Shown one piece after another: positions 14,947 to 54,403 of a DNA stretch of 64,000 bases; the first letter of the stretch is position 1; each line of letters starts with the position of its first letter. The stretch lies in assembly GCF_055900595.2 (NCBI RefSeq), contig NZ_CM148325.1; one strand, 5' to 3'. The notes under the pieces are model-generated. The model saw nothing but the letters and a program-made list of their open reading frames with translations, ran no database searches and had not been told where the DNA came from. The position numbers and the translations under genes are program-made.

Positions 14947-14979
14947 GCGCCAGATAAGAGGCGCGCGGGTGATGTGCCA

Positions 14980-15135
<156 letters not shown>

Positions 15136-15149
15136 GGCACTACCTGGCT

Positions 15150-28672: not shown

Positions 28673-28696
28673 GATATTCCTTTCTGCTTATCTCAA

Positions 28697-28720
28697 GGCC
28701 CGCTCTGCGGGTCTTTTTTT
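28697..28720 (+). terminator. fbaA rho-independent terminator
   Basis: ggcccgctctgcgggtc followed by ttttttt. Confidence 0.65.
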
Positions 28721-28730
28721 CGCCAAAAGA

Positions 28731-28845
28731 AAAAATGCCTGATGCGCTACGCTTATCAGGCCTACACGTATCCTGCAATATACTGAATTTACAGGCTTTT
28801 GTAGGTCTGGTAAGGCGTTAAAGCCGCATCCAGTATGACAAATCG
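28731..28845. repeat. REP/BIME units
   Basis: gcctgatgcgctacgcttatcaggcctac and inverted gtaggtctggtaaggcgttaaagccgcatcc. Confidence 0.75.
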
Positions 28846-28864
28846 CACATTGCTATCTGTCTGA

Positions 28865-28887
28865 GGCCCGCTCTGCGGATCTTTTTT
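28865..28887 (+). terminator. second, near-identical copy of the fbaA terminator hairpin
   Basis: ggcccgctctgcggatc followed by tttttt on the far side of the REP cluster. Confidence 0.5.
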
Positions 28888-29029
28888 CACCAAAAGCAAG
28901 GTGATGCAGATGAGAAATCTGTGATCTATTTGGCAAAATTATGCTTTATTGTTTACCCTTGTCAGACTGCCCGTCATAAGGCGGCGGAGTGTATTTCTCC
29001 ATTTTGAGTCAGTTGAAAAGGAATATTGA

Positions 29030-50552: not shown

Positions 50553-53426
50553 ATGACACAGACGTTAAGCCAGCTTGAAAACAGCGGCGCTTTTATTGAA
50601 CGCCATATCGGACCGGACGCCGCGCAACAGCAAGAAATGCTGAATGCCGTTGGCGCACAATCGTTAAACGCGCTGACCGGCCAGATTGTGCCGAAAGATA
50701 TTCAGCTTGCGATACCACCGCAGGTTGGCGCACCGGCGACCGAATACGCCGCGCTGGCGGAACTCAAGGCTATTGCCAGTCGCAATAAACGCTTCACGTC
50801 TTACATCGGCATGGGTTACACCGCCGTGCAGCTACCGCCGGTTATCCTGCGTAACATGCTGGAAAATCCGGGCTGGTATACCGCGTATACTCCGTATCAA
50901 CCTGAAGTCTCCCAGGGCCGCCTTGAAGCACTGCTCAACTTCCAGCAGGTAACGCTGGATTTGACCGGGCTGGATATGGCTTCGGCTTCTCTTCTTGACG
51001 AAGCCACTGCTGCTGCCGAAGCAATGGCGATGGCAAAACGCGTCAGTAAACTGAAAAATGCCAACCGCTTCTTCGTTGCTTCTGACGTGCATCCGCAAAC
51101 TTTAGATGTAGTACGTACACGCGCAGAAACCTTTGGTTTTGAAGTGATTGTCGATGATGCACAAAAAGTGCTCGATCACCAGGACGTCTTCGGCGTGCTG
51201 TTACAGCAGGTCGGCACTACCGGTGAAATTCACGACTACACTGCGCTTATCAGCGAACTGAAATCACGCAAAATTGTAGTCAGCGTCGCCGCCGATATTA
51301 TGGCGCTGGTGCTGTTAACTGCACCGGGTAAACAGGGCGCGGATATTGTCTTTGGTTCGGCGCAACGCTTTGGCGTACCGATGGGCTACGGTGGCCCACA
51401 TGCGGCATTCTTTGCAGCGAAAGATGAATACAAACGCTCAATGCCGGGCCGTATTATTGGCGTATCGAAAGATGCCGCGGGCAATACTGCGCTGCGCATG
51501 GCGATGCAGACTCGCGAGCAACATATTCGCCGTGAGAAAGCGAACTCCAACATTTGTACTTCCCAGGTACTGCTGGCTAACATCGCCAGCCTGTATGCCG
51601 TTTATCACGGTCCGGTTGGCCTGAAACGTATCGCTAACCGCATCCACCGTCTGACCGATATCCTGGCTGCAGGTCTGCAACAAAAAGGTCAGAAGCTGCG
51701 CCATGCGCACTATTTCGATACTTTGTGTGTGGAAGTGGCCGACAAAGCGGGCGTGCTGGCGCGTGCCGAAGCGGCTGAAATCAACCTGCGTAGCGATATT
51801 CTGAATGCGGTGGGGATCACCCTTGATGAAACCACCACGCGCGAAAACGTGATGCAGCTTTTCAGCGTACTGCTGGGCGATAATCACGGACTGGACATCG
51901 ACACGCTGGACAAAGACGTGGCTCACGACAGCCGTTCTATTCAGCCTGCAATGCTGCGCGATGACGAAATTCTCACCCATCCGGTGTTTAATCGCTACCA
52001 CAGCGAAACCGAAATGATGCGCTATATGCACTCGCTGGAGCGTAAAGATCTGGCGCTGAATCAGGCGATGATCCCGCTGGGTTCCTGCACCATGAAACTG
52101 AACGCCGCCGCCGAGATGATCCCAATCACCTGGCCGGAATTTGCCGAACTGCACCCGTTCTGCCCGCCGGAACAGGCCGAAGGTTATCAGCAGATGATCG
52201 CCCAACTGGCTGACTGGCTGGTGAAACTGACCGGTTACGACGCCGTCTGTATGCAGCCGAACTCTGGCGCTCAGGGCGAATACGCGGGGCTGCTGGCGAT
52301 TCGTCATTATCATGAAAGCCGCAACGAAGGGCATCGCGATATCTGCCTGATCCCGGCTTCTGCGCATGGCACTAACCCGGCTTCCGCGCATATGGCAGGA
52401 ATGCAGGTGGTGGTTGTGGCGTGTGATAAAAACGGCAACATCGATCTGACTGACCTGCGCGCGAAAGCGGAGCAGGCGGGCGATAATCTCTCCTGCATTA
52501 TGGTGACCTATCCTTCCACCCACGGCGTGTACGAAGAAACGATCCGTGAAGTGTGTGAAATCGTGCATAAGTTCGGCGGTCAGGTTTACCTTGATGGCGC
52601 GAACATGAACGCCCAGGTTGGCATCACTTCGCCGGGCTTTATTGGCGCGGACGTTTCGCACCTTAACCTGCATAAAACTTTCTGCATTCCGCACGGCGGT
52701 GGTGGTCCGGGTATGGGACCGATCGGCGTGAAAGCGCATTTGGCACCGTTTGTTCCGGGTCATAGCGTGGTGCAAATCGAAGGCATGTTAACCCGTCAGG
52801 GCGCGGTTTCTGCGGCACCGTTCGGTAGCGCTTCTATTCTGCCAATTAGCTGGATGTACATCCGCATGATGGGCGCAGAAGGGCTGAAAAAAGCAAGCCA
52901 GGTGGCAATCCTCAACGCCAACTATATTGCCAGCCGCCTGCAGGATGCTTTCCCGGTGCTGTATACCGGTCGCGACGGTCGCGTGGCGCATGAATGTATT
53001 CTTGATATTCGTCCGTTGAAAGAAGAAACCGGCATCAGCGAGCTGGATATTGCCAAGCGCCTGATCGACTATGGTTTCCACGCGCCGACTATGTCGTTCC
53101 CGGTGGCGGGGACGCTGATGGTTGAACCGACTGAATCTGAAAGCAAAGTGGAACTGGATCGCTTTATTGATGCGATGCTGTCTATCCGCGCAGAAATCGA
53201 CCAGGTGAAAGCCGGTGTTTGGCCGCTGGAAGATAACCCGCTGGTGAACGCGCCGCACATTCAGAGCGAACTGGTCGCCGAGTGGGCGCATCCGTACAGC
53301 CGTGAAGTTGCAGTATTCCCGGCAGGCGTGGCAGACAAATACTGGCCAACAGTGAAACGTCTGGATGATGTTTACGGCGACCGTAACCTGTTCTGCTCCT
53401 GCGTACCGATTAGCGAATACCAGTAA
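50553..53426 (+). CDS. gcvP: glycine dehydrogenase (decarboxylating), P protein (957 aa)
   Basis: Track ORF trimmed 28 codons to [22 protein letters not shown]... Confidence 0.96.
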
Positions 53427-53448
53427 TTTACTGATTCGACTATCTTCT

Positions 53449-53468
53449 AAAGGCGCTTCGGCGCCTTT
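53449..53468 (+). other. hairpin aaaggcgcttcggcgccttt, first copy, no T-run
   Basis: Perfect GC-rich stem 20 nt after the gcvP stop; identical stem repeated at 53622-53641. Confidence 0.5.
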
Positions 53469-53487
53469 GACACTGATGTCAAACTCA

Positions 53488-53598
53488 ACATTGCCTGATG
53501 CACCTCGTTTATCAGGCCTACATAGTCTGTGCAATGTATTGAATTTGCACGATCTTGTAGGCTGGATAAGGCGTTCACGCCGCATCCGGCATAATAAA
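53488..53598. repeat. REP/BIME units
   Basis: gcctgatgcacctcgtttatcaggcctaca and inverted gtaggctggataaggcgttcacgccgcatccggc. Confidence 0.75.
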
Positions 53599-53621
53599 AG
53601 CACTTTGTCATCAATAATTTG

Positions 53622-53649
53622 AAAGGCGCTTCGGCGCCTTTATTTTTTT
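53622..53649 (+). terminator. rho-independent terminator, second copy of the hairpin with T-run
   Basis: aaaggcgcttcggcgccttt followed by attttttt. Confidence 0.65.
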
Positions 53650-53659
53650 AGGAAAACAA

Positions 53660-54403
53660 ATGACTATAGCACTTGTGACCGGTGGCAGTCGCGGCATCGG
53701 GCGGGCAACTGCATTACTGTTGGCGCAAGAAGGGTATACGGTGGCGGTTAATTATCAGCAAAACCTCCACGCGGCGCAGGAAGTGGTGAAGTTAATCACG
53801 CAAGCCGGTGGCAAGGCATTCGTGCTTCAGGCGGATATCAGCGACGAAAATCAGGTCATCGCAATGTTTACAGCAATCGATCAGCACGATGAACCGCTAG
53901 CCGCGCTGGTCAATAACGCCGGGATCTTGTTTACCCAGTGCACCGTAGAAAACCTTACCGCAGAGCGAATCAACCGGGTACTTTCCACCAATGTGACGGG
54001 ATATTTTCTCTGTTGCCGCGAGGCGGTAAAACGCATGGCGCTTAAAAATGGCGGTAATGGCGGTGCTATCGTCAACGTCTCGTCAGTGGCCTCACGGCTG
54101 GGATCGCCGGGAGAATACGTTGACTATGCGGCATCGAAAGGGGCGATTGATACGTTAACCACCGGACTATCGCTGGAAGTCGCCGCGCAGGGGATCCGCG
54201 TTAACGGCGTGCGGCCAGGGTTTATTTATACCGAAATGCACGCCAGCGGTGGCGAGCCTGGACGCGTTGATCGCGTTAAGTCGAACATCCCCATGCAGCG
54301 TGGCGGACAGGCGGAAGAGGTCGCGCAGGCCATCGTCTGGCTGTTAAGTGATAAAGCCTCTTATGTTACGGGAAGTTTTATCGATTTGGCGGGCGGGAAA
54401 TAA
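53660..54403 (+). CDS. ygfF: short-chain dehydrogenase/reductase YgfF (247 aa)
   Basis: TGGSRGIG cofactor-binding motif at the N-terminus; full length. Confidence 0.88.
   Translation: MTIALVTGGSRGIGRATALLLAQEGYTVAVNYQQNLHAAQEVVKLITQAGGKAFVLQADISDENQVIAMFTAIDQHDEPLAALVNNAGILFTQCTVENLTAERINRVLSTNVTGYFLCCREAVKRMALKNGGNGGAIVNVSSVASRLGSPGEYVDYAASKGAIDTLTTGLSLEVAAQGIRVNGVRPGFIYTEMHASGGEPGRVDRVKSNIPMQRGGQAEEVAQAIVWLLSDKASYVTGSFIDLAGGK

Follow-up and report, generated by a model that had tools for sequence, protein, structure and literature searches.

A BIME-1 element between duplicated terminator hairpins downstream of Escherichia coli gcvP, and a probable hairpin-sized target-site duplication across the family

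The gcvP-ygfF intergenic region

The DNA considered here is a 64-kb stretch (64,000 nucleotides, hereafter the window) of Escherichia coli contig NZ_CM148325.1 from assembly GCF_055900595.2, and our subject is a bacterial interspersed mosaic element of type 1 (BIME-1), built around sequences of the repetitive extragenic palindromic (REP) type, that lies between the plus-strand genes gcvP and ygfF. The gcvP coding sequence (glycine dehydrogenase) spans 50553-53426, with its stop codon at 53424-53426 and the end of the open reading frame at 53426; its start coordinate was derived from the 2874-nt length that RefSeq gives for gcvP at the corresponding position in N96 and other strains. The downstream gene, ygfF, encodes an SDR family oxidoreductase (53660-54403). 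Over gcvP-ygfF the window is 100% identical to strains N96 and EC42405.

The spacer between the two genes carries the same hairpin twice. The 20-mer AAAGGCGCTTCGGCGCCTTT has exactly two copies in the window, at 53449-53468 and 53622-53641 on the plus strand, and a search allowing up to two mismatches still finds two matches, against 0.02 expected (0/100 shuffles reached two). These are direct and not inverted repeats, as both loops read TTCG on the plus strand, and they are spaced 173 bp apart. Each copy has the structure AAAGGCGC-TTCG-GCGCCTTT with an 8-bp stem. Copy 1, which we read as the left copy of a target-site duplication, begins 22 nt past the gcvP stop codon, has no T-run and is followed by GACACTG. 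Copy 2, the corresponding right copy, is followed by ATTTTTTT and ends 18 nt from the ygfF start codon (ATG at 53660); the A and run of seven T at 53642-53649, probably the original gcvP terminator T-run, stand beside this distal hairpin only. A terminator scan called copy 2 alone terminator-like (53622-53649; GC-rich 8-bp stem, tetraloop, then A and seven T), so that the GC-rich stem-loop with an immediate T-run that characterizes an intrinsic terminator is found at copy 2 and not at copy 1. The exact 20-mer count and the terminator scan thus bear out a first-pass annotation of this DNA, which had described two identical hairpins after gcvP around a REP cluster, with a T-run only at the second. 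A promoter-like TTGAAA-16-TATTTT sequence overlapping hairpin 2 was treated as a chance consensus match.

A complete BIME-1 between the hairpins

BIME-1 elements are defined by one Y and one short Z REP with a long conserved L linker containing an IHF site, in single copy (PMC3333891). They are about 140 bp in size and are present or absent among isolates (PMC1187871), and the title of Boccard and Prentki (1993) places BIME-1/RIB at the 3' ends of transcription units. The interval 53469-53621 is a complete 153-bp element of this kind, consisting of an end motif, a short Z REP, the L linker, an inverted Y REP and a second end motif. The left end motif (53469-53492, plus strand; GACACTGATGTCAAACTCAACATT) is 24 nt long, which is the modal spacer between flanking repeat and Z REP in the family; the window's left end is diverged (GACACTGATGTCAAA) relative to the family consensus GAGACTGATGACAAACGCAAAAyT. 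The short Z-type REP (53493-53521, plus strand; GCCTGATGCACCTCGTTTATCAGGCCTAC), as read from the sequence, has also diverged, with more than three mismatches to the consensus GCCTGATGCGCTACGCTTATCAGGCCTAC, whereas the element downstream of fbaA elsewhere in the window matches GCCTGATGCGCTACGCTTATCAGGCCTAC exactly. The 35-nt L linker (53522-53556, plus strand) contains the L core with one mismatch and an IHF-type motif, GTGCAATGTATTGAATTTGCA, at 53529-53549; by eye, a putative minus-strand IHF site, AATTCAATACATTG, departs from the consensus WATCAANNNNTTR at one base. The inverted Y-type REP (53557-53590, minus strand) has one mismatch to GCCGGATGCGGCGTGAACGCCTTATCCGGCCTAC. The right end motif (53591-53621, plus strand; ATAATAAAAGCACTTTGTCATCAATAATTTG, ending …GCACTTTGTCATCAATAATTTG; family consensus ATGAACAAAGCGCACTTTGTCAGCAATCTG) is 31 nt long, which fits the modal 30-31-nt spacer between Y REP and flanking repeat. 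The consensus ends of the family form an imperfect terminal inverted repeat over 12/15 nt (GAGACTGATGACAAA versus CAGATTGCTGACAAA).

The window element therefore agrees with the published definition in its convergent Y and short Z REPs, in its long conserved L linker (the same L pattern retrieves the 119 loci described below), in having a single Z-L-Y unit between the gcvP hairpins and in its 3'-end location, since it starts 43 nt past the gcvP stop codon within the terminator region. As RNA, 53427-53655 is predicted to fold into one long imperfect hairpin (-83.8 kcal/mol, z = -6.7) in which the left end pairs with the right end and Z pairs with Y. Rfam family ES036/CssrF matches the L linker (53514-53556, minus strand; 38.4 bits, gathering threshold 37.6), and naRNA4 (CssrE) partly matches the Y REP at 34.6 bits, below its gathering threshold; these Rfam matches lie within 53514-53601. 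The MG1655 RefSeq record carries no annotated REP or RIP repeat features.

Occupied and unoccupied alleles at gcvP

We searched 5426 complete E. coli genomes with a 301-bp query covering the locus. The occupied arrangement of the window at gcvP-ygfF is present in eight of these genomes, and three others (2020CK-00188, MFDS1022581 and MFDS1019527) carry an unoccupied allele with 100% identity over 128 bp of the query. In the latter the gcvP terminator (…TCTTCTAAAGGCGCTTCGGCGCCTTTATTTTTTT…) has a single hairpin, with ATTTTTTT directly after it and identical flanks, and the sequence reads …TCTTCT-AAAGGCGCTTCGGCGCCTTT-ATTTTTTTAGGAAAACAAATG. A single-hairpin allele with identical flanks implies that the REP element and the second hairpin were gained or lost as one. 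As the window allele equals the unoccupied site plus the 153-bp element plus a second 20-bp hairpin, the difference between the alleles has the form of a target-site duplication. The hairpin with the sequence of copy 1 is the sole gcvP terminator hairpin in the unoccupied alleles and in K-12, CFT073 and O157.

The K-12 allele has a more complex history. In K-12 DH10B (L001, 500-745) the single hairpin is followed by left-end-like AGTCAGATGACAAAGTACAAAAGTGC, a boxC-type inverted pair, right-end-like CCAGTTTGTTAGCAATCTC and then AAAGATACGTCAACGAATTA, which agrees with the second hairpin at 11/20 positions by manual count on the alignment, the differences being mostly G/C to A/T. To judge from the sequence, this allele looks like an old BIME-1 that was invaded by boxC and whose second hairpin has decayed. 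The idea prompted by this allele, that boxC itself shares the BIME-1 end motifs, was rejected. Copies of boxC in Pseudocitrobacter are without such ends, and invasion of an old BIME-1 by boxC is accordingly the better reading of the K-12 allele.

Other strains show further rearrangements of the region. In CFT073, O157:H7 and WP5-S18-ESBL-07 (L002-L004, 1377-1545), ygfF is absent and the convergent gene bglA follows gcvP directly. By eye, their 165-bp gcvP-bglA spacer contains the hairpin and then an apparent inverted BIME-1 remnant, in which the right end motif (AAAGTGCGCTTTGT) and an L-like core are reversed and a Z-like REP is present. In E. coli 2017-02-2CC (L006, 440-620) the IS110-family element IS621 lies inside the Z REP of the gcvP BIME-1, corresponding to window positions ~53493-53518; past IS621 the sequence agrees with the window again from CTACATAGTCTG on, with neither the second hairpin nor ygfF damaged. 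The window strain itself has a rather divergent haplotype across gcvTHP-ygfF-bglA.

Flanking repeats across L-motif elements

The wider family was sampled by its L linker, with one exact L-motif pattern run against 100,044 species representatives, one genome per species, so that sampling was independent of the flanks. The scan returned 119 loci (1.03 Mb) from E. coli, Escherichia albertii, Escherichia whittamii, two more Escherichia species, three Pseudocitrobacter species and a few likely contaminant contigs; the exact pattern was not found in Salmonella, Citrobacter or Klebsiella among these representatives. Short contigs assigned to a Bacteroides metagenome-assembled genome (MAG), Alkalicoccobacillus, a Collinsella MAG, Bacillus coahuilensis and Methylobacterium (L059, L067, L081, L082 and L110) also bear the exact motif and are most likely Escherichia contamination of those assemblies.

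A flanking repeat was defined as a direct repeat scoring at least 24 between the 85 nt to the left and the 85 nt to the right of single-copy elements with full flanks. Such repeats were found at 48 of 104 elements (46%), compared with 3.0% of 3000 mismatched left/right pairs, and when orthologous sites were merged 36/70 were positive (binomial P ~1e-35). The repeat sequence differs from site to site and its length by local alignment is 12-55 nt (median 23, typically 17-34). A hairpin of at least six pairs lies inside 43 of the 48 repeats, and in 26 of them the repeat is the palindrome to within 2 nt; in 18 canonical cases its overhang beyond the palindrome is no more than 3 nt at either end. 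Most often the Z REP lies 24 nt from the repeat on its side and the Y REP 30-31 nt from the other, and the repeats directly abut the conserved termini GAGACTGATGAC... and ...CAGCAATCTG (junction consensus GAGACTGATGACAAAC… and …CTTTGTCAGCAATCTG). The duplicated segment is site-specific, is normally a GC-rich palindrome of 17-30 nt and is centered on the hairpin axis, abutting the conserved termini. Both orientations of the element relative to outer runs occur, with a T-run only at 8 elements, an A-run only at 13 and both at 9. The background rate for a hairpin abutting a given point was 18/54, too permissive for this measure to be used.

Some L-motif elements occur as tandem arrays of element-plus-hairpin units (L114, L120, L072 and L073). 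Arrays of two to six L-motif units are found at L114 (38-378), L120 (13954-14646), L117 (1082-1876), L119 (7895-8515), L128 (4779-5399), L072 (7940-8153) and L073 (1766-1983). The hairpin GTGAGGTTATCCCTCAC recurs between units ~162 bp apart in L114 and L120, and the fbaA-type repeat recurs in L072; in L117, L119 and L128 the unit spacing is ~107-115 bp. Copies in Pseudocitrobacter often have perfect flanking repeats (for example L034, L036, L044 and L053), a sequence pattern that suggests recent BIME-1 activity there. At E. albertii L016 (4542-4741), a decayed element with degenerate REPs and L linker retains both recognizable end motifs, and its flanking hairpins, AAACGAGGGGGAAGCTCCTCGTTT and AAACGAGGAGAAAGCTCCTCGTTT, are well kept; the hairpins appear to outlast the element core.

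Control scans

The duplication is confined to elements with the L linker. None of 71 REP clusters without an L linker has a hairpin repeat, compared with 31/65 strict Z-L-Y pairs (Fisher P = 8e-13), and the eight high scores among the clusters without L were all due to neighboring REP or BIME pieces. The window contains a BIME-2-like REP cluster at 14972-15140, in which a 56-nt unit that includes a Y-like REP occurs twice in direct orientation, 113 bp apart, with an inverted REP in between; no hairpin is duplicated at the flanks of this cluster.

When 1.01 Mb were searched blindly for non-REP hairpins duplicated at a separation of 20-400 nt, 17 pairs emerged. Thirteen of them enclose BIME-1 (12 L-motif BIME-1 and one decayed BIME-1), and the remaining four are internal to boxC (three) or lie in tandem tRNA genes (one). 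The gaps of the L-motif pairs are 145-157 nt for adjacent hairpin copies, and one pair inside the L114 array spans 307 nt. The same 1.01 Mb held no element-free tandem duplicates of a hairpin separated by less than 20 nt. The first-pass annotation had suggested a general mechanism of REP insertion at or next to terminators and had named a scan for duplicated hairpins beside REP clusters as the test that could overturn it. The idea passes that test, and it holds for BIME-1, at 36 of the 70 merged sites, but does not extend to REP clusters generally, given the absence of duplications at all 71 clusters lacking the L linker.

Parallel sites at fbaA-mscS, yddM-fdnI and tkt

The only other L-motif element in the window lies between fbaA and mscS (28696-28896, plus strand), where direct repeats of 34 and 33 nt flank a BIME-1 that is without most of its left end motif. 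The repeats are AGGCCCGCTCTGCGGGTCTTTTTTTCGCCAAAAG at 28696-28729 and AGGCCCGCTCTGCGGATCTTTTTTCACCAAAAG at 28864-28896, and each comprises the hairpin, the T-run and CGCCAAAAG. The earlier claim that the gcvP pattern recurs at fbaA is thus correct. This site is occupied in 3718 E. coli genomes, with an unoccupied span of 314 bp as opposed to 481 bp; strain M-17, for example, is unoccupied and has one copy of the repeat. The fbaA element is also common to E. albertii and E. whittamii (L021 and L101). Similarly, 2070 genomes carry the element at yddM-fdnI, and the unoccupied allele of that site shows one hairpin. The comparison with REP-free alleles that had been proposed gives a single hairpin in the unoccupied forms of gcvP, fbaA-mscS and yddM-fdnI.

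A similarity search revealed the same architecture at the prohibitin/tkt locus, where the hairpin AAGGGCCGCTTTCGCGGCCCTT occurs twice. The elements at tkt and fdnI are the closest other elements to the gcvP BIME-1 found in E. coli genomes (79-82% identity), and each has its own, different hairpins. In strain AR_0006 the yddM-fdnI site (L134, 160-880) is otherwise unoccupied but has IS200C, of the Y1 transposase family, at the 5' foot of the single hairpin; the junction reads …GCAATAA|IS200C|AAAAAAATGGCGCTTCTTAAAGCGCCATTTT, and in other strains this hairpin is duplicated around BIME-1.

Interpretation and alternative explanations

We consider it highly probable that the 153-bp BIME-1 was inserted at the gcvP intrinsic terminator and that the hairpin duplication is a family-wide target-site duplication. 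Both hairpins of the architecture noted in the first-pass annotation are real; however, they are not two independent terminators but, in our reading, one target hairpin that has been duplicated.

Several observations weigh against this interpretation. Roughly every second site is without a clear duplication, and among the 53 elements with both end motifs a hairpin is present at one end only in 14 and at neither end in 6; such sites could reflect decay, loss of one copy or insertion without duplication. The census takes in only exact matches to a single L-motif pattern from a handful of species. The fbaA repeat is 33-34 nt long, includes the T-run and more, is off-center to the hairpin and adjoins an element whose left end motif is missing, so a strict rule of cutting at the hairpin feet fails to fit every case. 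The history of the gcvP site is also complicated. Its occupied allele is spread over four or more haplotypes, with differences of up to ~6% within the 301-bp segment, and the window (32834-63569 against L135-L137) has ~96% identity to two other occupied E. coli strains, a difference of ~4%. An unoccupied strain is instead its closest relative found, at ~98-98.5% (range 97.6-99.2%) over ~30 kb, which corresponds to 1.5-2% divergence. Because the occupied allele occurs on diverged haplotypes and the unoccupied strain is nearest, secondary loss is likelier than a never-occupied site, and the three unoccupied gcvP genomes are probably precise losses via the 20-bp repeats. The direction of change at gcvP is consequently not settled, as insertion and excision are not cleanly separable from these sequences.

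A rival view is that occupancy is ancestral and that the "empty" alleles are only deletions between pre-existing repeats, which would leave them uninformative about insertion. The several diverged haplotypes carrying the gcvP element fit such a view, as does the sharing of the fbaA element with E. albertii and E. whittamii, and many unoccupied alleles are probably secondary losses. However, the argument concerns direction at single loci only and the repeats would still have to be created; their fixed register relative to the element ends points to an insertion event, and K-12, CFT073 and O157 keep a single intact hairpin on the gcvP side. We regard it as unlikely in the form that denies insertion, and it is compatible with insertion at a terminator hairpin. 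That the duplication came before the element, with slippage or unequal exchange doubling the hairpin locally before a REP element landed, or was preferentially retained, between the copies, is very improbable. Slippage can yield direct repeats, and the tandem element-plus-hairpin arrays show that unequal exchange takes place at these loci, but the 1.01 Mb contained no element-free duplicated non-REP hairpins, at gaps below 20 nt or of 20-400 nt, except those internal to boxC or in tRNA genes. Moreover, the repeats keep a constant spacing from the Z and Y REPs (24 nt and 30-31 nt) and abut the termini, no fewer than 36 sites would each have required two rare events, and the copy number in unoccupied alleles is exactly one.

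The two hairpins could alternatively have evolved independently and been selected, as a double terminator or an RNA-stabilizing design. REP and BIME sequences are reported to affect termination and mRNA stability (PMC3333891, PMC3184786), and both hairpin copies are intact across the diverged occupied haplotypes. Yet 20/20 identical bases, including the loop, cannot arise by convergence when 0.02 matches are expected; the proximal copy has no T-run, 36 sites or more share the architecture, each with a different hairpin, and the element together with one hairpin makes up the whole difference from the unoccupied allele. Selection as the origin of the pair is already refuted by these points and we regard it as extremely improbable. 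We give almost no credence to the import of a hairpin-and-BIME block from another locus by gene conversion with the hairpin as homology, a route for which the title of the review by Higgins et al. (1988) offers a precedent in raising "evolution by gene conversion?" for REPs and to which the similar elements at tkt and fdnI would lend themselves. Within the window AAAGGCGCTTCGGCGCCTTT occurs only at gcvP, the closest elements elsewhere carry their own hairpins, and every site has its own repeat. No donor locus appeared among the matches from the 5426 genomes, in which no dedicated genome-wide 20-mer search was made.

Proposed mechanism and consequences

If BIME-1 insertion duplicates a terminator hairpin, the target hairpin would be extruded or single-stranded at integration and the two DNA strands would be cut, in a staggered manner, at its two feet. 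In each strand the cut would fall at the 3' foot of that strand's hairpin, and the resulting 3'-OH would be joined to the 5' end of an element strand, which would give the order hairpin-element-hairpin. Gap repair synthesis would then copy the whole hairpin, and the T-run would stay with the distal copy. The footprint would imply two-strand processing, recognition of structure and not of sequence, and symmetric cuts. On this basis BIME-1 may be a structure-targeting miniature transposon whose machinery recognizes terminator hairpins of any sequence and cuts at both feet, a tentative proposal to which we attach less than even confidence.

The chemistry could be of more than one type. Cutting at the 3' foot, if it occurs, would match HUH/Y1 (RayT-type) chemistry, and rayT, a single-copy gene, is present in E. 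coli. The combination of terminal inverted repeats and duplication may look equally like a DDE-type MITE (a miniature transposable element with inverted repeats). Against a role for RayT, IS200/IS605-family Y1 transposases are reported without larger target duplications (PMC2817692). A link from the flanks of K-12 rayT was tried and rejected, as these are BIME-2-type sequences without the L linker and without the end motifs. Nowhere in the 1.01 Mb did two end motifs face inward around a segment large enough for a gene, as would be expected of an autonomous partner.

Insertion of this kind would have consequences for transcript ends. Because it is without a T-run, the proximal hairpin should terminate poorly, and gcvP transcripts would be predicted to carry BIME-1 and to end at the distal hairpin. 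If the duplication is general, BIME-1 elements would systematically rebuild 3' ends into a hairpin without a T-run, a BIME-1 in the 3' untranslated region and a distal terminator. For annotation, this means that the stem-loop nearest a stop codon may be a T-run-less relic and that the working terminator may lie ~170 bp downstream. The direct repeats provide for precise loss, seen as unoccupied alleles, and for tandem amplification of element-plus-hairpin units, and the targeting of hairpins would explain the location of BIME-1 at operon 3' ends. The mechanism of REP dissemination was still unknown according to a 2021 paper. If the interpretation is true, the duplication would give the REP/BIME family its first insertion footprint and would turn the question of dissemination into one for direct assay, as it provides defined substrates for tests in vitro and in vivo.

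Comparison with known systems

The abstract of Bachellier's 1997 work reportedly mentions the insertion of boxC and insertion sequences into BIMEs as well as "excisions of a whole BIME-1", and that work may have shown flanking repeats at a few loci. We found no description of the hairpin duplication in the accessible REP/BIME literature; the key primary papers of 1993 and 1997 lie outside this coverage, and prior notice there is possible. The gcvP locus is an ordinary member of a known family, and the family-wide hairpin duplication is possibly an under-reported footprint. The window element itself is no different from the BIME-1/RIB/RIP elements described previously (Gilson, 1991; Boccard and Prentki, 1993; Oppenheim, 1993; Bachellier, 1994, 1997, 1999), and what is added to that picture is the duplicated terminator hairpin, particular to each site, on its two sides.

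With REPINs and RAYT systems (Nunvar, 2010; Bertels and Rainey, 2011; Ton-Hoang, 2012; Corneloup, 2021), BIME-1 shares two inverted REPs with conserved flanks that form one long hairpin, a non-coding nature and presence/absence polymorphism, in a species with a single-copy rayT. Bacterial MITEs (PMC3184786) likewise share small size, lack of coding capacity, imperfect terminal inverted repeats, flanking direct repeats and the existence of occupied and unoccupied alleles. However, MITE duplications are short, fixed and set by the transposase, whereas that of BIME-1 is 17-34 bp, variable and tracks the size of the target hairpin. BIME-1 thus has the terminal inverted repeats of a MITE but not its short duplication of fixed length.

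Group IIC introns insert after intrinsic terminators. Together with IS1397/ISKpn1 and IS621 they share with BIME-1 a landing site set by a DNA stem-loop and not by primary sequence, and intergenic positions at 3' ends. To our knowledge none of these elements duplicates a whole hairpin; insertion is next to the hairpin or within it, and any duplication is short. IS1397/ISKpn1 and the IS110-family elements including IS621 insert in REPs (PMC1525189). Compared with an ordinary intrinsic terminator, copy 2 at gcvP fits the type, and copy 1 would be the same hairpin that lost its T-run to the insertion of BIME-1.

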